Positions 1 through 26,236 of a DNA stretch of 32,376 bases are shown here, one piece after another. The position numbers were made by a program, and so were the translations under genes. The notes under the pieces are model-generated. The model was not told where the DNA came from and ran no database searches. It saw only the letters and a program-made list of their open reading frames with translations. Source of the stretch: a virus; the IMG/VR virus record IMGVR_UViG_3300029526_000003, positions 1 to 32,376 of that record; one strand, written 5' to 3'. Position 1 is the stretch's first letter, and each line of letters starts with the position of its first letter.

Positions 1-444
1 TATGAAAAGGTATTAGAGTTAAGAAAAATATTAGAATCTGTATCTGATAAGATTATTCCTGTATGGCATAAGAACAGAGGAATACAAGACTTCAAAGATA
101 TGTGTAAGAAATATCAAGGTAAGGTCGTAGCAATTACAGGATTCAAGAATGAAGATATTAAAGATGAACAATACATTATGTTCTTGAAATATGCAAAGAA
201 ATATAATTGCAAGGTCCATTGCCTTGGTATGACAAGAAAAAAGATATTAGATAAAGTCCCGTTTGATTATTGTGATTCTAGTTCATGGGTACAACAATCA
301 GTTTATGGGCGTATCAATGGATTAGGTAAAGTTTCAAGAGAAATGTCAAGGACAAATAGAGAACAAGTAATGATAGAGAATTATAAGCAATTTATGCAAA
401 TGCAAGAAAAATATGAACAAAAATGGAGGAACGTGAATAAATAG
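1..444 (+). CDS. dpdA: DpdA-like DNA-guanine transglycosylase (TGT fold), C-terminal part; 5' end cut by the window edge
   Basis: Frame 1 is open from nt 1 to TAG 442-444. HCLGMT and PFDYCDSSSW resemble the TGT/DpdA G-x-G segment and catalytic-Asp segment. The matching N-terminal half (IIDSGAHSF) lies at the right window edge. Confidence 0.6.
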   Translation, partial: YEKVLELRKILESVSDKIIPVWHKNRGIQDFKDMCKKYQGKVVAITGFKNEDIKDEQYIMFLKYAKKYNCKVHCLGMTRKKILDKVPFDYCDSSSWVQQSVYGRINGLGKVSREMSRTNREQVMIENYKQFMQMQEKYEQKWRNVNK

Positions 445-892
445 AAATAAGACGATAGCTTTTAATGCAGTAATGTGTGCATTGTATGTTGTAGCAACGA
501 CAATTAACCCAATCGGATATGGAGTATTTCAATTTAGGGTTAGTGAACTAATGACAGTGTTTCCTGTTCACTTCAAAAAAGCACGTATCGGATTGCTTTT
601 AGGAGTAGCAATAGCAAATGCAATGAGTCCTTTAGGCTTTATAGATGTATTTTGTGGGACATTAACGGCAGGATTATTGTATTACCTAATTGATAGACTA
701 CCGGTACACAATTACATCAAATACATTCTATATTCATTAGAAGTAGGATTAATTATTGGTTGGGAATTACAGTTGGTATATCATATGCCATTCTTATTAA
801 CATTCTTTACTACATTTATTCCGGAAATGATTCTATGTATTATCGGTGATTTATTAGCAAAGAAATTAAAGCATTATGTAAGTATTGATTAG
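437..892 (+). CDS. queT: QueT-like queuosine-precursor (preQ0/preQ1) transporter, ECF S-component type
   Basis: AFNAVMCALYVVATT...GVFQFRVSELMTVFP matches the QueT signature as I recall it, and the protein is multi-TM. The first ATG (473) has no SD and truncates TM1. GGAGG 425-429 plus 7 nt points to ATA 437, the first codon after in-frame TGA 434-436. Confidence 0.7.
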   Translation: MNRNKTIAFNAVMCALYVVATTINPIGYGVFQFRVSELMTVFPVHFKKARIGLLLGVAIANAMSPLGFIDVFCGTLTAGLLYYLIDRLPVHNYIKYILYSLEVGLIIGWELQLVYHMPFLLTFFTTFIPEMILCIIGDLLAKKLKHYVSID

Positions 893-905
893 AGGTGATA
901 AACAC

Positions 906-1274
906 ATGGCAAGAAAAAAGCTTATTAATCAAAAACAGTTTGAAGCTTTATGTGAAATTCAATGTACAAAAGATGAAATCTGTTCAGTGCTAGATGTATC
1001 AGACAAAACATTAGACAGATGGTGTAAAGAAACATATAAAACGTCATTCTCCGATATTTTCAGACAAAAAAGGCAAGGTGGGTGTGCAAGCCTTAGAGCA
1101 AAGCAGTGGAAACTAGCTTCAAAGAGTCCTGCTATGGCTATTTTCTTAGGTAAACAATTCTTAGGTCAAACGGATAAGGTAGAAACACATTTTGACGCTT
1201 CAGAAGTAAATGCAATTAATAAAGCTATGATTACAGATGTAGCAAAAGAAAGAAGAATTGAAGATTTTGAATAA
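906..1274 (+). CDS. terminase small subunit (HTH type)
   Basis: GAGGTG plus 7 nt precedes ATG 906. The N-terminal HTH-like segment (FEALCEIQCTKDEICSVLDVSDKTLDRWCK) and the position directly before terL are typical. The track's TTG 885 extension has no SD. Confidence 0.7.
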   Translation: MARKKLINQKQFEALCEIQCTKDEICSVLDVSDKTLDRWCKETYKTSFSDIFRQKRQGGCASLRAKQWKLASKSPAMAIFLGKQFLGQTDKVETHFDASEVNAINKAMITDVAKERRIEDFE

Positions 1275-2592: not shown

Positions 2593-2595
2593 GAA

Positions 2596-3999
2596 ATAGA
2601 AACATCTAACATACGTAATCCGTGGTTTCAGAATTACCTAAACAATAGAGGGTATTTTGTAGATACAAACGCAATTGAAATTATTGAATTGTGTAATAAG
2701 TGGTATACAAATACCGAAACAGAATTTCATACGGCATACACCTTGAATAATGAGGAATACACATTGGACAAAACAGACTTTGCAAAGCGTTTGTGCGAGG
2801 ATGACGCAAACCTTATTGAAATCCTAGATATAAACGCTACAGAGGATAGCGTTACAAATGATATTATTTCAGACATTCTAAACAAGAATAGATTTGATGT
2901 AATGTATAGGAAACAAGTTGAGCAAATGTCTGCAAACGGTACGGTAGGAGCTTATGTGACGGTATCAAATGCCGAAATTTATGAAGATGGTTCATTTAGT
3001 GGAGGAGAAATCAGAATTAATTATTGTGATTCAATGAATATCCTTCCGTTAACTGTTATCAATGACGAAATTGTGGAAGTTGCTTTCGTTGGGGTAAATT
3101 ACGAAAAACTAAAAAAAGTATATGTCATGGTCATGTTCTTAAAAGGACAAGACGAAAGATATATTGCAGAAACACATTATTTTAAGGAAACAGGCGAAGA
3201 AATAAAAGACCGTGCTCAGATTGTTCAATTAGATGTGGTTAAGCCGTTTGCAATTATGAGAAACGCAAAGGTAAACAACTTACAAATGCAAGGGTACGGC
3301 TTACCTAAAATTTGGAGCGCAATCGCTCCGCTAAAAACAATTGACTTAACAATGACAATGTGGAACAGAGATTTATTGAAATCAGATAAAATCGTTCTTG
3401 TGAATGAAGCATTAATGCAGAAAGACGAGAATGGAAAGATTAAAATGAATCCACAAATGAAAAAGATATTCGTTCAGTTAGGTAGAGACAAGTTACCGGA
3501 AGAAAAAGCTTTATGGCAAGAATATAATCCAACAGTTAGAACGGCAGAAGTTGTTCAATCGCTAGAAACGGCGTTAAGTATCTTATCAATGATGTTTGGA
3601 TTTGGTACAAAAAAATACACGTTTGAAAGTGGAAGGATTGTCACTGCTACCGAATATATTGGTGAGAATCAAGACGCAATGAAAGAAGTTAACTCACAAC
3701 GTAAAGAATCTACTGCATATATTCAAGACATTATTCAAGCAATAGCGTACTTCTATGAATTAACGCAAGGCAGAAAACTTAATATTAATTCATTAGACAT
3801 TGCTATTGATTATGACGATACATATGTCGAGGATAAACAAAGCACGGCACAAGCGTTAAGGAATGACGCATTAACATTTGATATTCCAAGATTAAAAATC
3901 ATGTACTTTATGAAACAATACGGTTTCACAGAAGAAGAAGCAACGGAGTTATTAAATGAAGAAATTCAAGATGATGGAGAGGGGGATGACGAAGAATAG
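2596..3999 (+). CDS. portal protein (SPP1 gp6-like)
   Basis: Size, position after terL and an acidic C-terminus fit a portal. AAGGAGG 2583-2589 plus 6 nt gives ATA 2596. There are 31 in-frame sense codons with no ATG/GTG/TTG before the SD-less TTG 2689. Confidence 0.8.
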   Translation: METSNIRNPWFQNYLNNRGYFVDTNAIEIIELCNKWYTNTETEFHTAYTLNNEEYTLDKTDFAKRLCEDDANLIEILDINATEDSVTNDIISDILNKNRFDVMYRKQVEQMSANGTVGAYVTVSNAEIYEDGSFSGGEIRINYCDSMNILPLTVINDEIVEVAFVGVNYEKLKKVYVMVMFLKGQDERYIAETHYFKETGEEIKDRAQIVQLDVVKPFAIMRNAKVNNLQMQGYGLPKIWSAIAPLKTIDLTMTMWNRDLLKSDKIVLVNEALMQKDENGKIKMNPQMKKIFVQLGRDKLPEEKALWQEYNPTVRTAEVVQSLETALSILSMMFGFGTKKYTFESGRIVTATEYIGENQDAMKEVNSQRKESTAYIQDIIQAIAYFYELTQGRKLNINSLDIAIDYDDTYVEDKQSTAQALRNDALTFDIPRLKIMYFMKQYGFTEEEATELLNEEIQDDGEGDDEE

Positions 4000-4769
4000 C
4001 AACTACATATTTTCCATTCGTCTCAAGAAATGGCGATAGATTAGTATTATATGACGCTTTCAGAAAGCTATTCTCAAGCTACTTTACAAATGGAGTGTTC
4101 GTAGATGATTCTAGTTCAGACCATTTAAGAGTTGAGAAAGCTCAAGGCTTAACATTAACAGTTAAGGCAGGACGAGCGAATATTAATGGAGCATTCTATT
4201 GGCAGAAAGATGACGAAACCATCACACTAGAAAAGAATACTGCAACTAAAAGCTACAACATCATTCTTAGATTGAATGACAATGACTCATACAGAAATAT
4301 TACATTAGTAGCAAGTGATATCAATGATGGAATAACAAGAAGTGATTCTATTTATGATTTAGTATTAGCTACGGTTACAGTAACAGGTAATGCAAGCGAA
4401 ATTAAAGGTTCAGATATTACTGATACAAGATTAGATTCTACGCGTTGTGGAGCAGTTACGAGCGCTATTAAGAGCGTGCAATCGTTGGATTTATTTACTC
4501 AAATCACTGAGCTATTCAAAGAAATTAAGGCTCAGAATGAATCTGAAATGAATGCAAATAGAACAGAGTTCAACGATTGGTTTGAAACTGTAAAAGATAC
4601 ATTGGATGAGAATACGGCAGGTAAGTTATCGAACAGAATTTCAAATATTGAAAAGATGATTATGGAGAACCATTTCACCACAATTCTATTAACGGAAGAT
4701 GGAACGCTAGTAGATGAGAATGGTCATGAGATTCTAGCGGATTGGAAATATAAAGTAAAGGAGGAATAG
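3996..4769 (+). CDS. phage structural, fiber-like protein (YFPF...GDR N-terminal family)
   Basis: The N-terminus (I/M)ATTYFPFVSRNGDRLVLYDAFRKLFSSYFTNGVF is typical of a Firmicutes phage fiber/structural family. It is only encoded if translation starts at ATA 3996, which overlaps the portal TAG (ATAG). The track start GTG 4095 removes 33 conserved codons. Confidence 0.65.
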   Translation: MATTYFPFVSRNGDRLVLYDAFRKLFSSYFTNGVFVDDSSSDHLRVEKAQGLTLTVKAGRANINGAFYWQKDDETITLEKNTATKSYNIILRLNDNDSYRNITLVASDINDGITRSDSIYDLVLATVTVTGNASEIKGSDITDTRLDSTRCGAVTSAIKSVQSLDLFTQITELFKEIKAQNESEMNANRTEFNDWFETVKDTLDENTAGKLSNRISNIEKMIMENHFTTILLTEDGTLVDENGHEILADWKYKVKEE

Positions 4770-4772
4770 AGA

Positions 4773-5690
4773 ATGGCAGGAAGACAAGTTACAGAATTAG
4801 ATACATTGCCTAGCTTCGCGGATACAAGTTTATTACCCGTACATAATGGAGCAGGATTAAAAAAAGGAACATTATCACAGTTATCAAACTATATAGGAAC
4901 TAAATTTAGTAACCCAAATTTATTGATTAATCCTGATTTTAAAATCAATCAGAGAGGGCAAAGCACATACACCGCAGAAAATACTGTAACTTATACAGTA
5001 GACAGATGGAAAGCTTGGCACGTTACAGTTAATATAAACGAAAAAGGATATATTAATATTGCAAATAATGAACACCAAGATGAAGGGATACTTAGGCAAC
5101 AATTAGAGACCGCAATTGATGGGCCTTCTACATTATCATGCTATGTAGAATCAGTAAGTGGGACGGTAAAATTAGAAGTACCCAAAAGTAGTTCAAAAAT
5201 AATTTTGAAGCAAGGATTAAACATTCTTCATACAGATGATAATGTAGATTCCTTTAAAATCACACTTGTTCGAGGCAGTAATGTGACTTTAAAGTGGGCT
5301 AAATTAGAGAAAGGTTCAATTGCCACGGCATTTGTAGAGCCTAATATGGCAGAAGAGATAACTAAGTGTAAGCGTTATTTTCAAGTATTAAATGTATTTG
5401 AAGGGTTTGTTGGTTCAGTATCATATTGGAATTTATATACGAAATTTTATGTCGGTGCTATGCGTACAACATCACCAACAATTACCGCTAATGTATCATC
5501 CGCAACAATTAATTTAAGTGGAGATAACACGGACAGAAAATTACAACTAGGCAATATCATTACACCGACAATGTATTTAAACGAATTAATAATCACGCAC
5601 AAGTCTGCAACAAATTTTGGATATAGCGCATTTAGTGCTTGTATATTTAGAAGTGCTATCATTTATAATGTAGACGCAGAAATCTATTAG
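4773..5690 (+). CDS. tail-fiber / receptor-binding-like protein
   Basis: AAGGAGGA SD plus ATG. The N-terminus TELDTLPSFADTSLLPVHNG..KKGTLSQLSNYI and NLLINPDFKINQRG are motifs common in phage fiber/RBP proteins. Confidence 0.6.
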   Translation: MAGRQVTELDTLPSFADTSLLPVHNGAGLKKGTLSQLSNYIGTKFSNPNLLINPDFKINQRGQSTYTAENTVTYTVDRWKAWHVTVNINEKGYINIANNEHQDEGILRQQLETAIDGPSTLSCYVESVSGTVKLEVPKSSSKIILKQGLNILHTDDNVDSFKITLVRGSNVTLKWAKLEKGSIATAFVEPNMAEEITKCKRYFQVLNVFEGFVGSVSYWNLYTKFYVGAMRTTSPTITANVSSATINLSGDNTDRKLQLGNIITPTMYLNELIITHKSATNFGYSAFSACIFRSAIIYNVDAEIY

Positions 5691-8101: not shown

Positions 8102-8971
8102 ATACCAAATCAAATTGCATTAGCTAAAACGTATGTCTCAAATCTTGATGAGGTATATAAGTTAGCTTCAGTTACAGGTGATTTAAACGCAGACGCTACA
8201 ATGGTACGAGCCGGAGCAAATGCAAAAGAAATCATCTATCCACAAATTTCAGTCAAAGGTTTAGGAAACTACGACAGAAATAGTGGATATACATCAAATT
8301 CAGTTAAATTGGAATGGAAGACTGCTACATTTGATTACGATAGAGGAACAAAAATTGCGGTAGATACACAAGATAACGCAGAATCAATGAATATTGCGTT
8401 CGGTATGGCAGGAGCGGAATTAATGCGTACAAAAGTTGCACCGGAAGCAGACGCTTACACATTCGCTAAAATTGCTGGGACAACAGGAATCACAAAGGTT
8501 TCAGAAGACTACACAAGTGCAGAAGAGTTCTTAAGTGCATTGCTAAAAGCCATTACTAAGATGGATGAGGATGAGGTTCCCGGTGAACAACGTATCTTGT
8601 ATTCAACACCTACATTATTAAATAGCGTTAAGGCGTTGGATACATACAAATCACGTGAAGCTTTACAAGGATTCGCAAAAGTCGTTCCTGTACCATCAAC
8701 ACGTTTCTACACAAAGATTAAATTGTTAAGCGGAACAAGTACAGAAACAGACGGTGGATTTGCGAAAGCAGAAGATGGACACGCAATCAATTTCTTGATT
8801 GTTCATAAACCTGCCGTTATGAAATGGGATAAACACACTGTTTCAAATGTAATTCCGGCAAGCAATAACATTGAATCAGATTCAGATGTATTGAAATATC
8901 GCAAGTATGGAATTGTTGATGTATACGCAAATAAGGTAGCAGGTATCTATTTATCTGCTAGTGCAGAGTAA
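8102..8971 (+). CDS. major capsid protein
   Basis: AAGGAGG 8086-8092 plus 9 nt gives ATA 8102. The N-terminus (I/M)PNQIALAKTYVSNLDEVYKLASVT resembles Sfi11-type capsid N-termini. The first ATG (8201) lies 33 codons downstream and has no SD. Confidence 0.8.
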   Translation: MPNQIALAKTYVSNLDEVYKLASVTGDLNADATMVRAGANAKEIIYPQISVKGLGNYDRNSGYTSNSVKLEWKTATFDYDRGTKIAVDTQDNAESMNIAFGMAGAELMRTKVAPEADAYTFAKIAGTTGITKVSEDYTSAEEFLSALLKAITKMDEDEVPGEQRILYSTPTLLNSVKALDTYKSREALQGFAKVVPVPSTRFYTKIKLLSGTSTETDGGFAKAEDGHAINFLIVHKPAVMKWDKHTVSNVIPASNNIESDSDVLKYRKYGIVDVYANKVAGIYLSASAE

Positions 8972-9427: not shown

Positions 9428-9843
9428 TAGGATTCTTTGAAGATTCAATTACACTTGTTAATCACTACTACGATACATTGACGAGAGAAGATAGATTTCA
9501 AGCTTCTATACTTGATAAATGTATGTGGAGACAATCAACTGTTAGAACTGCAAACGGTAATATTCTGAGCATAGCCACATCCACAAATATTACCATTCTA
9601 TATCGTGAGGGATATGTTGAACCTTACGCATATGCGAAACTTTCAAATGATGAGAAGCAAAAGCATTTCACGTTAAATACAGATAAAACGGATTTCGTAT
9701 TCTTTGGAGAAGTTGAAGAGGATTTATCTAGTATTAAAGCAATAAATGAAGCTAAAAAGAAATACAAATGGACAACGATTCAAAGCGTAACAGATTGTAC
9801 GAATGTCGATATGTTGAAGCATTGGGAGGTTGTCGGTCAATAG
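9424..9843 (+). CDS. head closure / minor capsid protein (putative)
   Basis: ATGA start-stop overlap with the upstream gene. The track start 9379 is an in-frame extension inside the previous CDS. Confidence 0.55.
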   Translation: MIGFFEDSITLVNHYYDTLTREDRFQASILDKCMWRQSTVRTANGNILSIATSTNITILYREGYVEPYAYAKLSNDEKQKHFTLNTDKTDFVFFGEVEEDLSSIKAINEAKKKYKWTTIQSVTDCTNVDMLKHWEVVGQ

Positions 9844-10202
9844 GAATGAAAGTTAAACTTGATGTTGAATCAATTTCCCAAATTAAACAATCAAGAGGAC
9901 TTGAAGAACGTGGACGAGTTCAACAAATGATTGATTCTGAAGTCATTAGGCTTATGACCCCTTATACGCCTAGAGACACAGGAGCATTGATTAACTCGGC
10001 TACACGATTAACACAAATCGGTAGTGGATTAGTAAAGCAAGGTGGACCAAGTGCCCCATACGCAAGACGTTGGTATTACAACAAAGAGGAAGTTGAATTC
10101 GTTGGTGGCAAAGTAGACCATTGGTTTGATAAAGCTATGCGAAACGGAGGAGCAAAAGAAATCTTGAAAGAAGTACAAGAAATGATAGGAGACGGAGAAT
10201 GA
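9840..10202 (+). CDS. HK97 gp10-like head-tail joining / minor capsid protein
   Basis: PYTPRDTGALINS...APYARRWYY is typical of this family. GGGAGG 9824-9829 plus 10 nt gives ATA 9840, overlapping the upstream TAG (ATAG). The alternative ATG 9846 lies 16 nt from the SD. Confidence 0.6.
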   Translation: MGMKVKLDVESISQIKQSRGLEERGRVQQMIDSEVIRLMTPYTPRDTGALINSATRLTQIGSGLVKQGGPSAPYARRWYYNKEEVEFVGGKVDHWFDKAMRNGGAKEILKEVQEMIGDGE

Positions 10203-10618
10203 CAGTATCAAAAGCATTGATTCAGTGGCTTTATGGCTATGGAAATATACAGATAGATGAACGTATTGAAACGGATGTTTTAGCGCAACAAGCTATCTCT
10301 TATGCATTGTATAAAGAACCTAATGCAATTGTAGATACATACATTGACGGCTCTCAAATGCGTACTGAATACTACACGTTTCTAGCTCGTAGGAATACAC
10401 AAATTGAATCAGAAAGGCAAGACAACAATGCATTTCTAGAAGAATTAGAAAATTGGATTGACGAAAAGAATTTAAATGGAGAATTGCCACAACTAGACGG
10501 AAACAGATATTGCGATGATGTTTCCGTTTCAAGTGGTTTATATCTATACACAAATGAGGATAGCCAAGCAGTATATGCGTTAACTATTCAAATTAAATAC
10601 AGAAAGGAGCTTAATTAA
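10199..10618 (+). CDS. tail completion / head-tail joining protein (putative)
   Basis: ATGA overlap with the upstream gene; position directly before the major tail gene. Confidence 0.55.
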   Translation: MTVSKALIQWLYGYGNIQIDERIETDVLAQQAISYALYKEPNAIVDTYIDGSQMRTEYYTFLARRNTQIESERQDNNAFLEELENWIDEKNLNGELPQLDGNRYCDDVSVSSGLYLYTNEDSQAVYALTIQIKYRKELN

Positions 10619-11106
10619 TAGCAACTACAGGAACTGAAGTAAGCACAGGACAAACAGTCAAGAAGTATATGATTGGATTGTTCTTGGAAATGGGAGCAGG
10701 TTATAAGCGAGTTAAGAAATCAACAACTTTAGACATTTCGTTTAACAGTGAAACTGAAACTTATGATTTTATTGCGGATAAGAATCCAACTGAATCGTTA
10801 AAGAGTTATTCACCTCAGATTTCGCAAGATTTAACAATGATTAAAGGCGAAGATGATTTTGAATACATTTATGAACAAATGATGAAATCCGTTCCAAACA
10901 ACGAAGAAGTAAATACAAAAGCTTTACTTGTATTCATGTTTGATGGAGATAAGACAGAAGGGTATAAAGCGTGGGAAGTTGACGCTAAATTAATCTTTGA
11001 TACGTTAAGCGGTGTCGATTCCAAAATCAATTTTAACATTAACTTTGCGAGCGATATTCGTGTTGGCGTTGCAAAGGTATCGGATGGTAATGTAACATTT
11101 TCTTAA
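10618..11106 (+). CDS. major tail protein
   Basis: AAAGGAG 10603-10609 plus 8 nt gives ATA 10618, overlapping the upstream TAA (TAATA). 17 sense codons precede the first ATG (10669). Position before the chaperones and tape measure fits. Confidence 0.65.
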   Translation: MATTGTEVSTGQTVKKYMIGLFLEMGAGYKRVKKSTTLDISFNSETETYDFIADKNPTESLKSYSPQISQDLTMIKGEDDFEYIYEQMMKSVPNNEEVNTKALLVFMFDGDKTEGYKAWEVDAKLIFDTLSGVDSKINFNINFASDIRVGVAKVSDGNVTFS

Positions 11107-11139
11107 CCATCAAAAGCATAAAGAAAGAAGAGGTAAATC

Positions 11140-11502
11140 ATGAATAGAATCACGTATGAAGGGAAACAGTATGAAATCCCACCTAAAACAATTGAGGTAT
11201 TAAAAGCAGAGGACGCTTGTAATGCATTTCACGCAACACATGAAGAAGCATATCGAGCTAAATTCGACTATCTAAAAACAGTATTGACAGATGAACAGAT
11301 TGAAAGCATGTTAGGTAGCGTAGATATTGAACAAGTTGATTTGATGGAAGTATTGTATATTGTCAATTTGATTGATGATGAATATTCAAAGAAAACGGTT
11401 GAACAGTTAGAAAAGAAATTAAAAACAACATTCGGAACAAATGGAATGAAGCAATTTCTTGACGCAAGCAAAACTGTTTCTAGCATTTCGGCGAAGAAAT
11501 GA
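11140..11502 (+). CDS. tail assembly chaperone
   Basis: AGAGGT SD plus ATG. About 120 aa, acidic, upstream of the tape measure gene. Confidence 0.6.
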   Translation: MNRITYEGKQYEIPPKTIEVLKAEDACNAFHATHEEAYRAKFDYLKTVLTDEQIESMLGSVDIEQVDLMEVLYIVNLIDDEYSKKTVEQLEKKLKTTFGTNGMKQFLDASKTVSSISAKK

Positions 11503-12062
11503 TTGATTTACGCATAAAAGGCTTGCCAAATAGCATTCAGTCGCTAGATGGCGAGCCTATTTTATTAAATACAGACTTTCGCTTGTGGATAAGATTCTAT
11601 GAAGAATTAGAACGATTTAACAATCATGTTGTTGATGAAGTAGATTGTTCTTATTTATTCGCAGATGAACCACCTATCATAGATGAGCATATTTTAAAAG
11701 AGCTAGAGCAATTCCTACACAACCCTTCTAGCACGCCTAGAAGTGATTCTACAGGCGTTAAGACATTGGATTATGTAAAAGATGGGGAATATATTTATTC
11801 GGCTTTTATGCAACTTTACGGCATTGATTTAACGGAATGTGATATGCATTGGCATAAGTTTCTAGCATTGGCGAATAATATAGTTGGTGATTCAACTTTA
11901 TGGGGATATGCAAAAGGTGTTAGAGGGTATGAAAAGCCTTCAAAGAATGATACACAGGATAAAGCATATCAAAGAGCAAAAGAAGCGTGGTCTTTCCCAA
12001 TCGAATTAACAATAGAGGAACAAGAAATGAAAGATGAATTTGATTCATATTTTGATGTTTAG
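11499..12062 (+). CDS. Gp15-like tail assembly protein
   Basis: ATGA overlap with the upstream gene. The N-terminal LNTDFRLWIRF.. segment resembles the Phage_Gp15 family. Position before the tape measure fits. Confidence 0.55.
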   Translation: MIDLRIKGLPNSIQSLDGEPILLNTDFRLWIRFYEELERFNNHVVDEVDCSYLFADEPPIIDEHILKELEQFLHNPSSTPRSDSTGVKTLDYVKDGEYIYSAFMQLYGIDLTECDMHWHKFLALANNIVGDSTLWGYAKGVRGYEKPSKNDTQDKAYQRAKEAWSFPIELTIEEQEMKDEFDSYFDV

Positions 12063-12082: not shown

Positions 12083-14662
12083 ATATCAGACGGAACATTA
12101 AAGTTTGATACAAAGATAGACACAAGTGGTCTAGAGAATGGTATTAAATCTGTAAAGGTTGTATCAAGTGAAGCCACAAATGCTATCAAAGACACTTCAA
12201 AAGCAATCGACAAGTTAGGTTCTGATGGTTCAAAAGCACCGCCAAAGATTACAGATGAATTAAGAAAGCTAAATAGCGAACAAAAGAATACACAAACAGA
12301 AACGCAAGAAACAGGTTCTAAATTTGATGTATTTAAGCAAGTAGGTAACAGTGCGTTAGAATCAATTCAAGGTGGATTTGACGGACTGTTAGGAAAGATT
12401 CAGAATATTAGTCCGGAAGCTACTGCAATTACTGAAACATTAACAGGATTAGGCGTAGGAGGTGTTGTTGGTGTCACTGCCGTAGCAGGAGCTATTGGTG
12501 GAATGGCATTAGCAATTAAGACAGGTGTTAATCAAGCTATGGAACTAGATGACGCTATGGCGAAATTCCAAGCTCAAACAGGTGCTTCAAGCAATGAAAT
12601 GAATAAATTTAAAAACATTGCTCGTGATGTTTGGTCAAACAATTTCGGCGAAGATATTTCAGATGTAGCCGATATGATGGGTCGTGTAAAGCAACAAATG
12701 CAAGGCATAAGTGATGTCGATTTAAAGAATGTTACAGAAGACTTGATTACATTAAGAGACGTTTACGGCATGGATGAAAATGAGACTCTTAGAGGTGCGA
12801 AGCAATTAATGGAACAGTTCGGAATTAGTTCCGAAAAAGCTTTTGACCTTATGGCAAAAGGTGCTCAGAATGGTTTGAATTATTCCGGTGAATTAGGAGA
12901 TAATATCGCAGAATACGCAGGTAAATTCAAGCAAGCAGGATATTCGGCAGAAGAATATTTACAAACTATTACAAATGGTGTAAAAAGTGGTTCTTATAAC
13001 CTTGATAAAGCGCATGACGCAGTAAATGAAATTACTACAAGAATGTCAGACGGAACTATCGAAAAATCATTAGATAGTTTCAATGATAAGACAAAAGAAG
13101 TTTTCCAAGCATATAAAGAAGGTGGCGCAACACAAAAAGATGTTCAAGACGCAATCATCCAAGATATTAAGGAAACAACAAATCAACAAGAAGCATTAAA
13201 CAAAGCAAGTATTGCATTCGGCACAATGGGAGAAGATTTCAACCTTAAGTTTATTACATCTTTATCATCTGTAGGGGATGAATATAACAATGTAGCCGGA
13301 ACAATGGATAAGGTTAAGGCTATCGCAAACGGTGGCTTAAAGAACGCTTTAAGTGGTTTAGGACGTGCATTTCTTGATTCATTTACTCCAATAGGCGAAC
13401 TTATTACTCCTATTCTTTCCGGTATCATTGTATTAATTACATTAGCTATACAAGATATTCAACAAGGGTTTGCCAAAGTCGGTGAAGTTATTTCAAGCGT
13501 ATTTGGTAGCATTGATACAAGTGGAATCACTAATATCGTTAGACAAGTTTCCGAAGTATTAGCTCCTGCTTTTGATAAGGTAAAAGAAGCGATTGACAAG
13601 ATGAAAGTTGCACTTGAACCTATCGCAAAGGATATATTAAGCAAGATTATTGAAGTGATTCAAAATATTGTGAATCAAGCCCAAAAGATTCTAAGTGTGG
13701 TAGGCCCACCGATTCTAGCAATCATTAAGAAGATTATTCAAACGGTAGTTGGAATGATTCCTGTAATAACATCTATTCTTAAAGTAGTTGGAAGTGTGGT
13801 AAGTGGTATCATCTCATTTATTAATACAGTAATTTCTATTGTAGGAACTGCGATTGCAACAATACTAGGATTTATCATGCCTATTGTTCAAATTGTAGCT
13901 ACAATCGTAGCGAATATTTGGTCTGTTATATTAGCAGTTGTTCAGAATATTTGGAGCAAAGTGAGCGAATTAGTTACTGCGATTATTGATTTTGTGAACA
14001 ATGTGTTTAAGACTGTTTCAGATGTAGTAGGCAATATTTGGAGTAAGATTCAAGATTCCATGAACAAGGTAAGAGACAAGGTTCAAGGCGTTGTCGACAA
14101 TATTAATAAATATTTCAATAATGTTAAGGATACCGTTTCGGATGTATTCAATGGTATTTGGTCTAAAGTTCAAGGTGTAATGGATAATGTAGGGAATAAA
14201 ATTTCAAATGTTCTACAAGGAATACAGAATTCATGGAATGGCTTGACAGGGTTTGTAAGTGGCGTATTTGGTGGAATTGAAGGAGCGGTTAGTTCATTAG
14301 TTGGAAGTGTAAAAGGAATGGTAAATGGTGTTATCGGTGGCATTAACGGTGCAATCGGTATCATCAATAAGATTCCTGGAGTTCACATTGGAAAGATTCC
14401 AAGACTAGAGCGTGGTGGTGTATTGAAGCGCGGACAAATTGGTTTGTTGGAAGGTAATGGAGCGGAAGCCGTCGTACCTTTAGAAAAAAATAAAGCGTGG
14501 ATTCGTGCCGTAGCTAAAGATATGGCTCAGATTATGCCTAGTGTAACAACAAATAACAATGGACAGACAATTAACTTCTATTCTAAGACATCTAGTCCGG
14601 ATGAAATCGCTAGAATGTTACGTATGCAAGCAAGATATGGATATGGAGGTGTAGTTCAATAG
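12083..14662 (+). CDS. tail tape measure protein
   Basis: AAAGGAGGTGG 12064-12074 plus 8 nt gives ATA 12083, the first codon after in-frame TGA. The N-terminus (I/M)SDGTLKFDTKIDTSGLENGIKS is a classic TMP start. 140 sense codons with no canonical start precede ATG 12503. Hydrophobic core and NIWSK-type repeats are present. Confidence 0.85.
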   Translation: MSDGTLKFDTKIDTSGLENGIKSVKVVSSEATNAIKDTSKAIDKLGSDGSKAPPKITDELRKLNSEQKNTQTETQETGSKFDVFKQVGNSALESIQGGFDGLLGKIQNISPEATAITETLTGLGVGGVVGVTAVAGAIGGMALAIKTGVNQAMELDDAMAKFQAQTGASSNEMNKFKNIARDVWSNNFGEDISDVADMMGRVKQQMQGISDVDLKNVTEDLITLRDVYGMDENETLRGAKQLMEQFGISSEKAFDLMAKGAQNGLNYSGELGDNIAEYAGKFKQAGYSAEEYLQTITNGVKSGSYNLDKAHDAVNEITTRMSDGTIEKSLDSFNDKTKEVFQAYKEGGATQKDVQDAIIQDIKETTNQQEALNKASIAFGTMGEDFNLKFITSLSSVGDEYNNVAGTMDKVKAIANGGLKNALSGLGRAFLDSFTPIGELITPILSGIIVLITLAIQDIQQGFAKVGEVISSVFGSIDTSGITNIVRQVSEVLAPAFDKVKEAIDKMKVALEPIAKDILSKIIEVIQNIVNQAQKILSVVGPPILAIIKKIIQTVVGMIPVITSILKVVGSVVSGIISFINTVISIVGTAIATILGFIMPIVQIVATIVANIWSVILAVVQNIWSKVSELVTAIIDFVNNVFKTVSDVVGNIWSKIQDSMNKVRDKVQGVVDNINKYFNNVKDTVSDVFNGIWSKVQGVMDNVGNKISNVLQGIQNSWNGLTGFVSGVFGGIEGAVSSLVGSVKGMVNGVIGGINGAIGIINKIPGVHIGKIPRLERGGVLKRGQIGLLEGNGAEAVVPLEKNKAWIRAVAKDMAQIMPSVTTNNNGQTINFYSKTSSPDEIARMLRMQARYGYGGVVQ

Positions 14663-15531
14663 ACATTAAACAAGTTAGAGTCATTGTTAGAAGAGATGAC
14701 GGAGAAGAATTTGAAATCGACAACCAAAAAAGATGGAGGATTCCTTCAAGTAGTGGTTTAGATGGATTTGATTATGTAGCACCTTCATATACAACACAAG
14801 ACAATGCATTTGGAAATGGTGCTAGATTAATCGGTTCACGTATTCCAACGAAAGAAAGAAGTGTGAAAGCTATCTTTAAGGGCTCACTAGAAGAAAAAAG
14901 AGAAGAAAGGGAGAAGCTACGGCGCTTCTTCCAATATTCTCATGTCTTTGATGTAATAGTTGAGTATATGGGAGAAAAAAAGTATTGCAGAGGTAGACTA
15001 TATGCGTATAGCTTACCAACTGCTAATATTTACAAAGAATTAGAACTTAACTTTACAATTCTATGCACACAACCTTTATTGCTTTCATTTGATGATTTCG
15101 CAAGGAATATCGCAGAAATTGGCGAAGGTTTAGCGTTCAATTTTGAAATACCGGAAACAGGCGTAAACTTTGGAACATTTACATTCGCTAGAGAAATCTA
15201 CATTGATAATCAAGGTGATACAGAAACATACTGTAGAGCCGTTATTGAAGCGTTTGGAGAGGTTACAAATCCCAAACTATTCAATAAAGATAAATATATT
15301 CGTGTATTAGATACGCTACACAATGGTGATGTATTAGAAATTGATTTAGTTTCTGAGCCTATCTCGATTAAAAAGAATGGTGTGAATTGTATCGGAAAAG
15401 TTGACAGAACATCATCATTAAATGATATGACGATTCAGTTGGGCGAGAACATCATAGGATATACGGCAGACAATGGAGATACAAATCTAGCTTGTACGGT
15501 TTATTATAATGAAAGGTATTTAGGGTTATAG
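14659..15531 (+). CDS. distal tail protein (Dit)
   Basis: GGAGGTG 14645-14651 plus 7 nt gives ATA 14659, overlapping the TMP TAG (ATAG). 68 sense codons precede the track's GTG 14863. Position after the TMP fits. Confidence 0.7.
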   Translation: MDIKQVRVIVRRDDGEEFEIDNQKRWRIPSSSGLDGFDYVAPSYTTQDNAFGNGARLIGSRIPTKERSVKAIFKGSLEEKREEREKLRRFFQYSHVFDVIVEYMGEKKYCRGRLYAYSLPTANIYKELELNFTILCTQPLLLSFDDFARNIAEIGEGLAFNFEIPETGVNFGTFTFAREIYIDNQGDTETYCRAVIEAFGEVTNPKLFNKDKYIRVLDTLHNGDVLEIDLVSEPISIKKNGVNCIGKVDRTSSLNDMTIQLGENIIGYTADNGDTNLACTVYYNERYLGL

Positions 15532-16559: not shown

Positions 16560-17069
16560 ATGAAAAAGAAAGATGATGGAGGATTTAAGCAAATAGCAAG
16601 AAGTATGTATTTTCTAGACAAAATGAATGCAATAGGTGGTGTAGCCGTAGCCGTATTGACATACGTATTAGGTGAACATTGGTATTTATTCGCATTCTTC
16701 TTATTCATGAACGTTGTTGATTACATTACAGGGTGTATGAAATCGGCTATCGCTCACAAGCTAAACAGTAATAAAGGATGGATTGGAGTCCTGAAAAAGC
16801 TAGGATATTGGATTATGATTGTGGTTGCGTTCGCATTCAGTGTATTCTTGGTGGAAATTGGAGAAATGTTAGGAATTGATTTCCGTGTAACTACATTATT
16901 AGGTTGGTTTGTGCTAGCTTCTCTATGTATTAATGAGGTGCGTAGTATTATTGAGAACCTTGTACAATGTGGATATAGCGTCCCTAGCGTGTTAACTAAA
17001 GGATTAGAAGTAGCAGATAAACTCATTAACGAAGAACAAGACAATGACGACTCAAGTACCTTGGAATAA
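16560..17069 (+). CDS. holin (Phage_holin_4_1 / TcdE-like)
   Basis: AAGGAG plus 8 nt gives ATG 16560. Three to four TM helices, DYITG and INEVRSIIENL..G..VP motifs. Confidence 0.75.
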   Translation: MKKKDDGGFKQIARSMYFLDKMNAIGGVAVAVLTYVLGEHWYLFAFFLFMNVVDYITGCMKSAIAHKLNSNKGWIGVLKKLGYWIMIVVAFAFSVFLVEIGEMLGIDFRVTTLLGWFVLASLCINEVRSIIENLVQCGYSVPSVLTKGLEVADKLINEEQDNDDSSTLE

Positions 17070-17347: not shown

Positions 17348-17452
17348 ATGGAAGAAAAAGAAGTGAAATTTGAAGAATTATCAGAAGAAGCTCAATCAGA
17401 GTTGAGTAACGGGAAAGAAGAAGGTGAAGATGAATATCATACTCAAGCTTAA
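17348..17452 (+). CDS. small acidic peptide (34 aa), hypothetical
   Basis: TAGGAGGT SD plus 6 nt plus ATG. MEEKEVKFEELSEEAQSELSNGKEEGEDEYHTQA. Its 3' end overlaps the proposed endolysin start by 19 nt. Confidence 0.4.
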   Translation: MEEKEVKFEELSEEAQSELSNGKEEGEDEYHTQA

Positions 17453-18531
17453 CAAATAAATATATTCCTGCTAGTGCAGATAACTATATGCGAGGACGTG
17501 GTGGATATAAAGTATGTAAAATTACACCACACCACATGGCGTGTCAGTGGAGTGCCGAAAGATGTGCTCAATCATTCCAAGTAAGTGGAAGAATGGCTAG
17601 TGCAAACTATTGTATCGGGTCAGATGGTACGATTGTTGCGAATGTCGACGAAGAAAACAGAGCGTGGACATCATCAAACTACTACAACGATTGCCAATCT
17701 ATCACAATTGAAGTTGCAAATGAAACGTGTGCGCCTAATTGGACTATCTCAACTAAAGCATGGAATGCATTGGTAAATTTATGTGTTGATATTTGTAAGA
17801 GATACGGATTTAGATTAAATTACACAGGAAACGCAAATGGAAGTTTGACAGAGCATAGAATGTTTGCAAGTACAAGTTGCCCAGGTCCTTTCTTACACGA
17901 TAGAATGCCTCAATTAGCACAAGAAGTAAATGCTAGATTAGATGGTCAGACTGTAGCACCAAGCGCTCCTAGCACTCCAAGCGCTCCAAGTGGTGAAAAG
18001 TATTCAGTCGGTACACCTATCTGCACAAATACACTAAGCGTTAACTGTTACGGAACTTCTAAAATCTTAAAAGGAGATTGGAGTGGTTCAATTGGCAGAG
18101 TCATTAAAGGCTCTAAATATCCATATCGTGTTGATCGTAATGGGGTGGCGATTGGATGGACAAATGATGCGGGTATTGATACAGACCCTCACACACCAGT
18201 AGGCGCTACACAGTCTAGTGCAGAAGCTATTGACCAAATCTTGCACGAAGGCAGTTATGTTACTTCTGTACATATGAAAATAGGAAATCAAGGCTTGAAG
18301 AAAATTGGCGATGATTTATGTTGCTATCTATCAAAACTGGGTGGTTGGTTTCCAATTCGTATGGTAGACAAAGTACCTAATTCAGACGGATATAATGACA
18401 ATGTATTGCATACCACAAATGCAGTTGTCTATGTAACTAGAATAAGAGTTGATGCGGTTAATGTTCAAAAGAATATTGTTAAAATTGGCGGTATTTGGGT
18501 TGACCCAACACCATTAACAGAAATTGCGTAA
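17434..18531 (+). CDS. endolysin: N-acetylmuramoyl-L-alanine amidase (Amidase_2/PGRP) with a C-terminal cell-wall-binding region
   Basis: Motifs KITPHHMA, ASANYCIGSDG, NRAWTS, SITIEV and EHRMFASTSCPG, an APSAPSTPSAPS linker and an SH3-like C-terminus. AAGGTGA 17421-17427 plus 6 nt gives ATA 17434, the first codon after TGA. ATG 17488 has no SD and removes NKYIPASADNY, which aligns to PlyG-type N-termini. Confidence 0.8.
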   Translation: MSYSSLTNKYIPASADNYMRGRGGYKVCKITPHHMACQWSAERCAQSFQVSGRMASANYCIGSDGTIVANVDEENRAWTSSNYYNDCQSITIEVANETCAPNWTISTKAWNALVNLCVDICKRYGFRLNYTGNANGSLTEHRMFASTSCPGPFLHDRMPQLAQEVNARLDGQTVAPSAPSTPSAPSGEKYSVGTPICTNTLSVNCYGTSKILKGDWSGSIGRVIKGSKYPYRVDRNGVAIGWTNDAGIDTDPHTPVGATQSSAEAIDQILHEGSYVTSVHMKIGNQGLKKIGDDLCCYLSKLGGWFPIRMVDKVPNSDGYNDNVLHTTNAVVYVTRIRVDAVNVQKNIVKIGGIWVDPTPLTEIA

Positions 18532-23679: not shown

Positions 23680-23777
23680 AAAAGAGGTGCGCACTCGACA
23701 AAGCACGCACACACAAGAAATGACGTTCTTAATTTAAGAACACATACATTATAGCAGATTAAAAGGAGAAACGGAAG

Positions 23778-24419: not shown

Positions 24420-24421
24420 AA

Positions 24422-24715
24422 ATAAAGAAACGAGATAAGTCAATCTTACAAAAAGACATGTCTAAATGCTACATATGCGGTTCAACTTTAGATTTACATA
24501 CACATGAAATTTACTTTGGAACTGCTAACAGAAAGAAATCAATTGAGCATGGTTGTTATGTAAGATTATGTGCTAGACATCACAACATGAGCAGTGAAGG
24601 AGTACATTTCAATCACAAATTAGACATGAAGCTTAAAAAGGAATGCCAACAGGCATTTGAAGAAGAACACACAAGAAATGAATTTATGAAGATATTTCAT
24701 AAGAATTATTTGTAG
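24422..24715 (+). CDS. Cys/His-rich (HNH/zinc-finger-like) phage protein
   Basis: CYICGS...HTHEIYFG...LCARHH motifs. GAGGG 24410-14 plus 7 nt gives ATA 24422, with an in-frame ATA 24416 that overlaps the SSAP TAG. ATG 24458 lacks an SD and removes KKRDKSILQKD. Confidence 0.55.
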   Translation: MKKRDKSILQKDMSKCYICGSTLDLHTHEIYFGTANRKKSIEHGCYVRLCARHHNMSSEGVHFNHKLDMKLKKECQQAFEEEHTRNEFMKIFHKNYL

Positions 24716-24724
24716 GAGGTAAAT

Positions 24725-24955
24725 ATGCATTCATACAATGTTATCACGAATCAAGAATCATACCCTAGAGAAGTCTATTATTCTCAAGCTAAAAGGATTG
24801 AAGAGCTTGAAAACTATATTATGGATGAAAACTTTAATCCGTATCAAGATTCATGGACGGATGTAAAGAAAATGGAAGAATTGGGAATCACAGAAGAACA
24901 AAAGCAATTGTTCAGACTTCAGAAATTTGAAGAAATGGAGCGAATTCCATTTTGA
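24725..24955 (+). CDS. hypothetical protein
   Basis: TAGGAGGT SD plus ATG. Confidence 0.6.
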   Translation: MHSYNVITNQESYPREVYYSQAKRIEELENYIMDENFNPYQDSWTDVKKMEELGITEEQKQLFRLQKFEEMERIPF

Positions 24956-25491
24956 AAACAAAGTTGATTGGCAATTACTTAAGGAAATCTAGAAATGAGG
25001 ATGGAAACCTAGAAATAACATTTGAATTAACTGAGCCAATATACGAATCATACGCTCAGACGCTCGAAAAAGGGGCATATAGCGTGATTATAGATTCAGT
25101 TAAACATTTACGCACGAACGAACAAAATCGGCTTATGTGGCATTTAATAAAGGAAATATGTAGTAATGAAAACGCAAGCTATAACGATACGTGGGATATG
25201 TACTGCGAATTTCTGAGAATGGCAAAACAGAAGTATACATATGTTTCAGTTTTGAAAGATGGTGTTGATTCGTTGGCTCAAGCTCATGGAGTTAGGGCAG
25301 TTCAAATATTGGGTACTGAGATAAGAGACAATGGAAATGAATTTGTGAATTGTAGATTGTTTCTAGGTAGTTCACAAATGGATACAAAGCAAATGGGAGT
25401 ATTAATTGACTGCATACTGGATTATGCAGAACAATTAGGAATCAATACCAAATATTATTTAGATAAAGGAATCAAGGGGGAAGAAAAATAA
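24952..25491 (+). CDS. ninB: NinB/Orf-like recombination mediator
   Basis: RTNEQNRLMWHLIKEI and LGSSQMDTKQMGVLIDCILDYAEQLGI parallel lambda NinB (RSLDQNRKLWA...; GQSTSRM..EFAELLE..). TTG start overlaps the upstream TGA. Confidence 0.55.
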   Translation: MKTKLIGNYLRKSRNEDGNLEITFELTEPIYESYAQTLEKGAYSVIIDSVKHLRTNEQNRLMWHLIKEICSNENASYNDTWDMYCEFLRMAKQKYTYVSVLKDGVDSLAQAHGVRAVQILGTEIRDNGNEFVNCRLFLGSSQMDTKQMGVLIDCILDYAEQLGINTKYYLDKGIKGEEK

Positions 25492-25856
25492 AGTTTGTAA
25501 TAAAAGGAAAACTAGATGGATTGAATGAATACGTAAACGCTTGTCGTGCAAATCGCTATAAAGGAGCAGAAATGAAGAAAAAGAATGAGCGATTAGTTAT
25601 GGCTTATATCTTACAGGCAGTAAACTTTGGTGAAATTTACGAAGTTAAGAACTACCCAATTAAATTAAATATCAATTGGTATGAACCGAATTCAAGGCGT
25701 GATGTTGATAACGTAACATTTGCAACTAAATTCATTCAAGATTCATTAGTTAGAACAGGAATTTTAGAGGATGATTCAAGGAAATACATTAATCAAGTGA
25801 ATCATTCAGTATTTACAGATAAGGAGAATCCAAGAATAGAGGTAGAGATTTTATGA
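25488..25856 (+). CDS. rusA: RusA-family Holliday junction resolvase
   Basis: (I/M)KFVIKGKLDGLNEYVNACRANRYKGAEMKKK...RRDVDNV..KFIQDSLV..GILEDD. GGGGG 25476-80 plus 7 nt gives ATA 25488, overlapping the ninB TAA (ATAA). The track's TTG 25521 removes the conserved N-terminal strand. Confidence 0.7.
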   Translation: MKFVIKGKLDGLNEYVNACRANRYKGAEMKKKNERLVMAYILQAVNFGEIYEVKNYPIKLNINWYEPNSRRDVDNVTFATKFIQDSLVRTGILEDDSRKYINQVNHSVFTDKENPRIEVEIL

Positions 25857-26236
25857 GAGAGAAAGAAATGGCAGTAAACGTAGCAAAGCAAATTTACTTT
25901 GATGAATTCAACTTGTTTTATCAAATTGTAGAAAGAAGCAAAGGAGATACAAATTCAAAGGATGTATTTAATGAAGCGTGTACAGTTCATGATATTACCG
26001 AAATGTTTATTTACAGATTAACAGGATGTAATGGTTTAAATGAATGCATAAGCTATACAAAAGATGGATTGAACAAAGAAAGATTGATAGCAATATACAT
26101 GGTATTAGAAGAAGATGGCGGACATTTCAATGATGAGCAATTAAAATGCTATATAGAATACACCGACAAGATTATTGATGAAATCCTAAAGCAAGTCGTA
26201 GTACTTGGTGGAGGTGAGCAAAATAGCAGTAATTAG
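25853..26236 (+). CDS. hypothetical protein
   Basis: ATGA overlap with the rusA stop. Confidence 0.55.
   Translation: MREKEMAVNVAKQIYFDEFNLFYQIVERSKGDTNSKDVFNEACTVHDITEMFIYRLTGCNGLNECISYTKDGLNKERLIAIYMVLEEDGGHFNDEQLKCYIEYTDKIIDEILKQVVVLGGGEQNSSN

Follow-up and report, generated by a model that had tools for sequence, protein, structure and literature searches.

As far as we know, all initiator tRNAs described from nature carry a CAU anticodon, and start codons other than AUG are normally read by this initiator through mismatches. In animal mitochondria, where AUA serves as a start codon, initiation and elongation share one tRNA-Met, the modified CAU anticodon of which reads AUG and AUA alike. 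The elongator tRNA-Ile(UAU) known from Mycoplasma mobile, like that of lactic acid bacteria, has a paired position 1:72 and A37. The native bacterial initiator reads AUA at 0.1–1% of the level of AUG (PMC11744186), and exchanging the ATG start codon of rpoS for ATA lowers RpoS (PMC12864459); non-AUG starts of mitochondria are mentioned in PMC11775629. Initiators with a different anticodon have been obtained by engineering, among them amber (CUA) initiators and i-tRNA(AAC). They start translation at the matching codon, receive the amino acid that goes with the new anticodon (formyl-glutamine for CUA, valine for AAC), and retain formylation; phiX174, in a version constructed for biocontainment whose capsid genes start with TAG, depends on the amber initiator (10.1101/2024.07.29.605542; 10.1101/2021.05.25.445580; PMC11744186). 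The stretch of DNA analyzed here (IMG/VR record IMGVR_UViG_3300029526_000003, positions 1 to 32,376, hereafter the window) is the complete genome, ∼32.4 kb, of a temperate siphovirus-type phage from a human gut metagenome (ERR1190869). As many as 13 of its 53 genes, about a quarter overall and close to half in the structural module, appear to start with ATA, and the genome carries, at position 31347, the gene for an initiator-type tRNA with the anticodon UAU. Probably, this phage-encoded initiator tRNA decodes the AAUA starts of the phage genes.

A preliminary description of the sequence had listed 12 ATA codons as starts of key phage genes. All 12 were located where it had placed them, the ribosome-binding (Shine–Dalgarno, SD) motifs it gave are exact, as are their distances from the start and the counts of extra codons, and at 437, 12083, and 17434, ATA is indeed the first codon after an in-frame stop; a 13th site came to light in a small open reading frame (Table 1). 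When the starts of the window were ranked by the energy of the duplex with the 3′ end of 16S rRNA, 37 ATG, 12–13 ATA, 2 TTG, and 1 GTG emerged. The SD energies of the ATA starts, between −7 and −17 kcal/mol, were equal to or better than those of the ATG starts, and only 2 of 127 internal in-frame ATA codons had a strong SD upstream. A census, in which decoy codons competed with ATA and ATG for SD-backed starts, was conducted on the close clade (related contigs L001–L033) and on a more distant tier (L034–L079). In the close clade, 274 SD-backed starts were ATA and 316 were ATG, compared with 55 for AAA, 22 for GAA, 5 for AAT, 3 for ATT, and 1 for ATC; in the more distant relatives, ATA fell to the level of the decoys. 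Chance is, thus, no explanation for the SD-backed ATA codons.

The N-termini defined by the ATA codons are also those of the homologous proteins. Residues 3–288 of the capsid protein align to profile positions 3–294, residues 3–187 of the endolysin to positions 3–174, and residues 3–143 of the replication initiator to positions 7–146; the profile matches begin at residue 3 of the head protein encoded at 3996 and at residue 7 of the tape measure protein. Residue 7 of QueT aligns to position 1 of the Pfam family, and residue 23 of RusA to profile position 20, full-length coverage of Pfam RusA being reached only with the ATA start. With annotated capsid proteins from other phages, the alignment begins at residue 1 of the ATA-defined capsid. 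Homologues do, therefore, cover the segment between ATA and the first canonical start, which the preliminary description had proposed as a check, and they do not begin at the downstream canonical starts.

For the capsid gene, the same aligned codon is ATA in 40 of 40 clade members and ATG in 68 of 68 more distant orthologues (45–66% identity, including prophages in Lachnospiraceae and Oscillospiraceae genomes). This comparison between the clade and its outside relatives applies to the capsid only, the other modules being too diverged or mosaic across tiers. The ∼35 close capsid relatives in IMG/VR, which stem from at least five sample series and share 92–98% of their amino acids, all have ATA, with a second codon that varies between CCA, GCA, and GCG. 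At the structural sites, ATA is kept in 28–45 related contigs per site, at those of the early genes in three to seven relatives each. ATG and ATA also replace each other: in eight gene families of the clade, one and the same start is occupied by differing types of start codon, and TerS (906) as well as the gene at 4773 start with ATG in the window but with ATA in two relatives each. Conservation within the clade, ATG in the capsid orthologues outside of it, and the interchange of the two codons all agree with the earlier proposal that the ATA codons are real starts. As SD spacing, open frame, homologous N-terminus, conservation, and ATG interchange all point in the same direction, use of these codons for initiation is supported as far as sequence comparison can do so.

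The presence of the tRNA, noticed before as an initiator-like species with a UAU anticodon, is borne out by the Rfam model RF00005, which scores positions 31347–31419 at 48.8 bits (gathering score, 29) and flags 1:72 as non-pairing. The anticodon loop CUUAUUA yields the anticodon UAU, and not CAU, and the molecule has A1xA72, G2-C71, C3-G70, A73, an encoded CCA, A11:U24, G30-C40, and U37. Its structure was assessed in an alignment of 11 sequences, in which six variants of the UAU tRNA were set beside four sister-phage tRNAs with CAU and the verified tRNA-fMet of Escherichia coli. In this alignment, 94.8% of the cells were paired, versus ∼45% when the partners were slid, and 10 pairs showed compensatory changes. 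Position 1:72 is unpaired and the GAGC/GCUC D-stem (with A11:U24) is present in 11 of 11 sequences; A73, G2-C71, and C3-G70 are invariant, 4:69 is A-U rather than G-C, and the only invariant pair of the anticodon stem is G30-C40. An unpaired 1:72 is the major determinant for the formylase, assisted by A73, G2-C71, C3-G70, and G4-C69; formylation is independent of the attached amino acid, and A11:U24 (R11:Y24) has been named an initiator feature (PMC9976931). Of the three G-C pairs that initiators have in their anticodon stem, G30-C40 alone is essential, and natural initiators with an au/GC/gu stem are known (PMC5389676). From its identity elements, the phage tRNA would be formylated and would be excluded from elongation.

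The anticodon stem varies within the clade. Positions 29:41/30:40/31:39 are A-U/G-C/U-G in the window, G-C/G-C/U-G in a variant with a GC-richer stem, and A-U/G-C/C-G in L014. A common variant has the stem UCGGU/GCCGA together with G26, replacing CUAGU/GCUAG and A26; this amounts to three double compensatory changes and results in a stem close to the canonical initiator stem UCGGG/CCCGA. None of the attributes of an elongator tRNA-Ile(UAU), namely, a paired 1:72, Y11:R24, A37, and tRNA-Ile relatives, was found in the window tRNA, nor was the CAU anticodon of a bacterial initiator, UAU being present in all loci of this tRNA (36+ in IMG/VR and 41 metagenome loci). The tRNA is far more conserved than the coding DNA flanking it. 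Directly upstream lies a candidate extended −10 promoter. Aligning the clade shows conservation of its TG and (A/G)ATAAT; the motif, which was not among the calls of the promoter scan, may, judged by its sequence and position, be a promoter of the tRNA's own. The stem of the hairpin preceding it was called by the terminator scan on the minus strand only.

The UAU tRNA and the ATA starts travel together. On 21 of 22 near-complete clade genomes (at least 31 kb, with an ATA capsid start), the tRNA is located on the same contig, which upholds the tie between the two that had been proposed before; the remaining clade contigs are stretches that do not cover the tRNA region or, as in L004, have a mosaic upstream module. 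In sister phages, the capsid gene of which starts with ATG, CAU tRNAs of the same architecture lie beside the packaging and head genes, with U1xU72 or a similar mismatch, GGG/CCC stems, and A37. Scanning IMG/VR yielded at least 120 contigs with the same acceptor and D-arm backbone and CAU; in the 78 CAU relatives examined, 1:72 is mostly unpaired, and A73 is present in 68. The nearest tRNAs in deposited phage genomes are annotated as tRNA-Met. Together, these relationships indicate that the UAU tRNA is derived from a phage-borne tRNA of the initiator type. U37 occurs in three lineages: that of the window, one in which the T-arm is canonical (L140, L156, L168, L188, and L191), and an independent one with C1xA72 (L141/L161). 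All three show multiple SD-backed ATA starts; in L141/L161, the TerL of which is 48% identical, 7 ATA starts were found compared with 2 ATG starts. Enrichment of ATA starts is confined to the tRNA-carrying lineages.

The base preceding the start codon (position −1) is A at 13 of 13 ATA starts of the window, but only at 22 of 35 ATG starts (p = 0.01). Clade-wide, with each gene family counted once, A is found at 23 of 25 ATA starts versus 57 of 114 ATG starts (p = 8e-5), and the two ATA families without it are probably false start calls. At site 906, position −1 is C in the ATG version and A in both ATA versions; at site 4773, it is C, T, or A in the ATG versions but only A in the ATA versions. 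On the side of the tRNA, position 37 is U in all three ATA-using lineages, compared with A in 76 of the 78 CAU relatives (97%). Compensatory mutations in E. coli, A37U among them, have demonstrated that initiation increases when positions 37 and −1 are complementary (PMC10018350). As tRNA position 37 lies opposite position −1 of the mRNA, the U37 found here faces a near-constant A and likely forms a fourth base pair with it. The start signal would then consist of an SD plus AAUA, read by 3′-U37 U36 A35 U34-5′, and pairing at this fourth position may make up for the weakness of the three A-U pairs and of the anticodon stem.

In the scenario that combines these observations, the anticodon of a phage-borne tRNA-fMet-type gene would have changed from CAU to UAU, resulting in full pairing with AUA, to which U37 would add the pair with the preceding A. 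As the host initiator tRNA(CAU) would read AUA very poorly, the genes starting with ATA would depend on the phage tRNA. The likeliest amino acid carried is isoleucine, and the proteins may begin with formyl-isoleucine; some Bacillota have a tRNA-Ile(UAU) that is accepted by their isoleucyl-tRNA synthetase (IleRS), according to work cited in PMC9976931 (refs 44 and 45). A search of the annotated genes for a formyltransferase, aminoacyl-tRNA synthetase, initiation factor, deformylase, or tRNA nuclease returned none, many small early genes being unannotated.

As for the role of such a system, a timing device or a lysogeny safety switch acting on lytic functions is a possibility, with which two observations fit. 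ATA starts are enriched in the late module (9 of 22 genes vs 4 of 31; p = 0.026), and the lysogeny module has canonical starts (TTG with a strong SD for the CI-like repressor, ATG for the integrase and for a secreted accessory, or moron, protein). On the other hand, the numbers are small, and the use of ATA by three early genes as well as the promoter that the tRNA seems to have of its own speak against a lock or switch. The system may, alternatively, counteract nucleases that cleave tRNA-fMet, or the ATA starts may have accumulated by near-neutral drift once the tRNA existed.

Several points weigh against the phage tRNA being the initiator that decodes these codons. The link between the tRNA and initiation at ATA is correlative. 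Contigs with UAU tRNAs of the A37 type (L133, L139/L193, and L158/L196) had no ATA starts in the short stretches examined, and the UAU anticodon alone is no predictor of ATA starts. No tRNA was called in the window by ARAGORN, which does call the L014 variant; the probable reason is the unusual elbow, that is, a one-base bulge in the T-stem, the T-loop UGCAAAU with G55, and the D-loop AGUAGUA without GG. The close relatives L140, L156, and L188 have the canonical AGUGGUG and UUCAAAU and no bulge; G18 changes to A and U55 to G in concert, which points to covariation of a tertiary pair. The fold energy of the tRNA was not better than that of shuffled sequence (z = −0.96), which is why covariation was used as support instead. 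Three consecutive G-C pairs in the anticodon stem are lacking, only one being present in the main variant and two in the GC-stem variant, with U-G at 31:39. Finally, U37 rules out N6-threonylcarbamoyladenosine (t6A) at this position, a strong IleRS determinant in bacteria, and UAU removes C34, the determinant for methionyl-tRNA synthetase, so charging, by whichever synthetase, may be inefficient.

Were the tRNA an ordinary elongator tRNA-Ile(UAU), it would boost decoding of internal AUA codons, and the ATA starts would be read by the host initiator(CAU), either inefficiently or with relaxed proofreading by initiation factor 3 (IF3). Codon compensation is the classical explanation of phage tRNAs (PMC10264068), the phage contains 139 internal ATA codons, one variant of the tRNA is labelled tRNA-Ile(tat) by ARAGORN, and an elongator of this kind has the precedent in Bacillota mentioned above. 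However, ATA is the least used isoleucine codon of the phage (19.7%), and the tRNA itself does not have the appearance of an elongator: no variant has a 1:72 pair, A11:U24 is typical of initiators, U37 takes the place of A37/t6A37, contrary to an elongator identity of the IleRS type, and the nearest relatives are tRNA-Met and initiator types with CAU. According to ref 404 in PMC9976931, the E. coli initiator can elongate once one base change has restored its 1:72 pair. The host genes flanking the prophage have no ATA starts (see below), the need for A(−1) fits U37 of the phage tRNA and not A37 of a normal initiator, and reading of AUA by the native initiator is too low to be fit for a major capsid gene. 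This explanation is, therefore, very unlikely. That the ATA codons are in fact ATG, altered by sequencing, base modification, or assembly, could be suspected because they all share the context A-ATA and because modified DNA is conceivable for a phage that has QueT and whose relatives encode a DNA glycosyltransferase. Yet AATG occurs 360 times in the window, and ATG is found as 204 internal codons and 37 starts, so there is no context-wide conversion of G to A; the same ATA codons recur in dozens of contigs that were assembled independently, from many samples, in different projects, and with different assemblers; and ATA tracks the matching tRNA and A at −1. An artefact, which the preliminary description had itself named as a test of its proposal, was, thus, not borne out and is effectively refuted.

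Another explanation concerns the purpose rather than the mechanism. The tRNA could be an initiator that mainly replaces that of the host, U34 reading both AUA and, by wobble, AUG, as a counter-defence or alongside a shut-off of host initiation driven by the phage, whereas the ATA starts would be largely neutral products of G-to-A drift. The sister phages carry CAU initiator-type tRNAs while their start codons are unchanged, so carrying an initiator has a value of its own. Toxins of the VapC type cleave initiator tRNA, and phage tRNAs tend toward evasive changes in the anticodon loop (PMC10264068); a G/U wobble at the start codon's third position is tolerated by IF3 (PMC11744186); and ATG and ATA interchange among close relatives in an AT-rich genome (33% GC). 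What argues against drift is that ATA is nearly invariant at specific genes in 28–45 relatives, while nearby sites vary, and that A(−1) is kept as well, which suggests selection; the enrichment in late genes points the same way, and no candidate for a nuclease or a shut-off function was found in the genome. Replacement of the host initiator as the main purpose is, hence, unlikely, but it is compatible with decoding of the AAUA starts by the phage initiator, which remains the best explanation.

Table 1. Features of the window discussed in the text. Distances are in nucleotides (nt) between SD motif and start codon; counts refer to the aligned start codon in relatives.
Feature	Coordinates	Strand	Start codon and SD	Relatives and remarks
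QueT-family transporter gene	437..892	+	ATA; GGAGG, then 7 nt	ATA 5/5; ATA also in prophage L206
Portal gene	2596..3999	+	ATA; AAGGAGG, then 6 nt	ATA 45/45; phrog_533
Head protein gene	3996..4769	+	ATA, overlaps portal stop (ATAG)	ATA 44/44; phrog_1220
Major capsid gene	8102..8971	+	ATA; AAGGAGG, then 9 nt	phrog_422
Minor capsid/head completion gene	9840..10202	+	ATA, overlaps upstream stop	ATA 35/35
Major tail gene (probable)	10618..11106	+	ATA; AAAGGAG, then 8 nt	ATA 30, ATG 1, gapped 2
Tape measure gene	12083..14662	+	ATA, first codon after stop; AAAGGAGGTGG, then 8 nt	ATA 32/32
Dit (distal tail protein) gene	14659..15531	+	ATA, overlaps tape measure stop (ATAG)	ATA 28/28; phrog_33
Holin gene	16560..17069	+	ATG	ATA in 24 relatives, ATG in 2; Pfam Phage_holin_4_1
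Endolysin (Amidase_2) gene	17434..18531	+	ATA, first codon after stop	Pfam match
Small open reading frame, 42 residues	22902..23030	+	ATA, SD −10.8 kcal/mol; no canonical start	ATA 5/5; 13th site
Early gene	24422..24715	+	ATA; GAGGG, then 7 nt	ATA 6/6
RusA resolvase gene	25488..25856	+	ATA, overlaps upstream stop (ATAA)	ATA 7/7; ATA also in Holdemanella prophages
Replication initiator gene	26223..26963	+	ATA; GGAGGTGA, then 8 nt	ATA also in prophages L197, L199, L201–L203
Hairpin plus T-run closing the early operon, directly upstream of the tRNA	31303..31327	+		Stem, then TTTTT; conserved in clade
Extended −10 promoter, candidate	31332..31340	+		TG-n-AATAAT; ends 6 nt before the 5′ end of the tRNA
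Initiator-type tRNA, anticodon UAU	31347..31422	+		Rfam tRNA model and alignment
Terminator-like hairpin plus T-run	31505..31532	+		Downstream of the tRNA, before ParB/packaging genes; conserved in most relatives

Some of the sites call for comment. The start at 9840 is slightly ambiguous, an ATG lying two codons downstream, but ATA has the better SD spacing; upstream of the ATA at 26223, there is an in-frame TTG, but without an SD. In the tape measure gene, 140 codons lie between ATA and the first canonical start. A further ATA codon considered, at 17017, is probably not a start (weak SD, and G at −1). The label "fiber-like" given earlier to the gene at 3996 did not hold, its product matching the head protein family phrog_1220 instead, and the product of the gene at 24422 had no match in Pfam, which leaves its label "HNH-like" unverified. 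A 12-mer described as shared by the starts at 3996 and 10618 is present, namely, ATAGCAACTACA; it is not conserved as such, most relatives having ATAGCAACTCAA or ATAACAACT... at 10618, and the sharing is probably a coincidence of similar N-termini (Ala-Thr-Thr). The automatic gene calls on public assemblies of the same genome (L144–L146 and L154) shorten the genes that start with ATA, to 411 residues for the portal, 719 for the tape measure, and 222 for Dit; the capsid call has 256 residues and no Pfam match on record, and as only protein genes were called, the tRNA is not among them. The non-coding stretch directly 3′ of the tRNA (31423–31500; TGATTACAAAGCCTATCAGTAAGTCC...) is well conserved in most clade members. 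Among ∼600 start calls of the ATA clade, 1 GTG and 0 TTG were counted, compared with a share of ∼20% for GTG and TTG among the canonical starts of the sister tier; in the ATA lineage, ATA seems to replace the usual minor start codons.

Other unusual tRNAs were encountered in further contigs of phage or metagenome origin. Initiator-like UAU tRNAs with A37, in which 1:72 is U-A, CxU, CxA, or AxA, are present in L133, L139/L193, L158/L196, and L165; in L165, as in the others, the short stretches examined showed no ATA starts. The sister-tier phage L055, which has an ATG capsid start, carries a separate tRNA-Ile(tat) of the elongator type (positions 987–1058) with G1-C72 and a Y11:R24 D-stem. High-GC phage contigs (L148, L149, L152, and L153; GC 0.59–0.61) contain initiator-type tRNAs, the anticodon of which is either CAC or CAG, matching GUG and CUG, respectively. 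These have C1xA72 or G1xA72, A11:U24, and G30-C40, an AACCA end in L148, L149, and L152, and U37 in L149 and L153, and they hint that retargeted phage initiators may be a wider phenomenon. Initiator-type tRNAs with the anticodon AAU or GAU were not found in the scan of IMG/VR.

The genome is probably circular. Two assemblies of it in ENA are 32,503 bp (k = 119) and 32,511 bp (k = 127) long; after subtraction of the terminal k-mer overlap, both amount to ∼32,384 bp. With a GC content of 30–36%, it is organized such that the early and replication genes are followed by the tRNA, ParB-N, and QueT, then by TerS, TerL, portal, head, tail, and tape measure genes, Dit, tail proteins, holin, and endolysin, and finally by the integrase and, on the minus strand, the CI-like repressor, after which the early genes come again. 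The structural region had no megablast match among deposited phages, which indicates the lack of cultured close relatives. Homologues of the integrase (∼82% identity) were found on contigs of 46–97 kb, and in L197–L200, the integrase adjoins chromosomal aroA, aroC, aroB, and tyrA as well as genes for a YitT-family protein, an HD-domain protein, and a Ser/Thr kinase. Products of these flanking genes are identical to NCBI/UniRef proteins named Holdemanella or H. biformis; to judge from this, the host is Holdemanella (Erysipelotrichaceae, Bacillota). The host flank of the prophage has 32.6% GC, and ∼10 host genes on it all start with SD-backed ATG, whereas the neighboring RusA and replication initiator genes of the prophage start with ATA; at the ATA rate of the phage, 0 of 10 would occur by chance with a probability of 0.06. 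A single contig, L206, comprises the same kinase gene, the integrase, early genes, tRNA(UAU), and ATA starts of the genes for QueT, portal, RusA, and replication initiator. Directly upstream of the tRNA, a conserved protein is encoded for which the assembly collection has index entries in 141 blocks, and the clade is, accordingly, a common one in gut metagenomes; GTDB representative genomes, scanned for the specific tRNA pattern, gave no match. Short palindromic or near-palindromic sites are scarce in the window (CAGC 1 vs 65 expected, GCTG 2 vs 35, and GATC 4 vs 94; CCAGG-type and GGCC sites are scarce, too), which looks like restriction-site avoidance. In the relative L205, a TET-associated glycosyltransferase (PF20691; positions 11129–11890) is encoded between ParB and terminase and, together with QueT of the window, hints at modification of DNA or tRNA bases in the clade. 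A link between QueT or the glycosyltransferase and the ATA system was not found.

Taken further, Holdemanella gut phages would run a natural orthogonal initiation system, in which a non-CAU initiator, probably carrying formyl-isoleucine, reads AAUA, and in which genes for capsid, tail, lysis, and replication are locked to the phage tRNA, as a lock, a timer, or a means of doing without the host initiator; the principle may extend beyond these phages. For this wider proposal as a whole, we see the arguments evenly balanced. If true, it would be the first evolved counterpart of the synthetic orthogonal initiation systems, the biocontainment of phiX174 among them; a search of the literature for a natural non-CAU initiator tRNA or a phage ATA-start system returned engineered systems only. 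It would raise the questions of whether a virus can create a private start codon that gates or favors its own translation, of whether some natural proteins begin with an amino acid other than methionine, and of the strength that the 37/−1 pair can reach. In practical terms, about one gene in four is shortened or overlooked by standard gene callers in these phages, which are common in the human gut, and annotation pipelines should allow ATA when the tRNA is present; the tRNA and its start signal might also be reused as an engineering part in Bacillota.

Compared with bacterial tRNA-fMet, as encoded by metZWV and metY of E. coli, the phage tRNA shares the unpaired 1:72, G2-C71, C3-G70, A73, and CCA, the GAGC/GCUC D-stem with A11:U24, the AGGUC variable loop, and G30-C40. 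It differs in having UAU instead of CAU, U37 instead of A37, only one or two of the three G-C pairs of the anticodon stem, A1xA72 instead of C1xA72 (which is present in the relative L141), a bulged T-stem, G55, and a D-loop without GG, and in being encoded by a phage. Lactobacillus plantarum is among the lactic acid bacteria that have an elongator tRNA-Ile(UAU), as cited in PMC9976931 (refs 44 and 45), which likewise reads AUA by UAU; unlike these elongators, and unlike the type found in L055, the phage tRNA has initiator features. With animal mitochondria, the phage has in common that AUA starts a set of genes, but it does so via a separate, dedicated tRNA with a genuine UAU, which exists beside the normal AUG system of the host. 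Other phage tRNAs (PMC10264068) are also carried by the phage and changed in the anticodon loop relative to their cellular counterparts; they are, however, elongators that keep their decoding identity, whereas here an initiator reads a changed codon and the starts of the phage have changed along with it. Pairing between base 37 and position −1, known to favor initiation in E. coli (Hollerer & Jeschek, 2023, PMC10018350; Esposito et al, 2003, as cited therein), is recognizable in U37 and the near-obligatory A; in E. coli, A37U moves the preference to a complementary base at −1. The effect in E. coli is modest, though (∼23% for U at −1; PMC10018350), but looks close to a requirement in the phage, perhaps owing to the weak A-U pairs between AUA and UAU. 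The system is a natural analogue of the engineered orthogonal initiators, which also combine a changed anticodon with matched start codons and make essential capsid genes of a phage dependent on the tRNA; it differs from them in that it has evolved, that the phage carries its own tRNA rather than receiving it from the host, and that the codon is the sense codon AUA, apparently reinforced by a fourth pair between U37 and A(−1).

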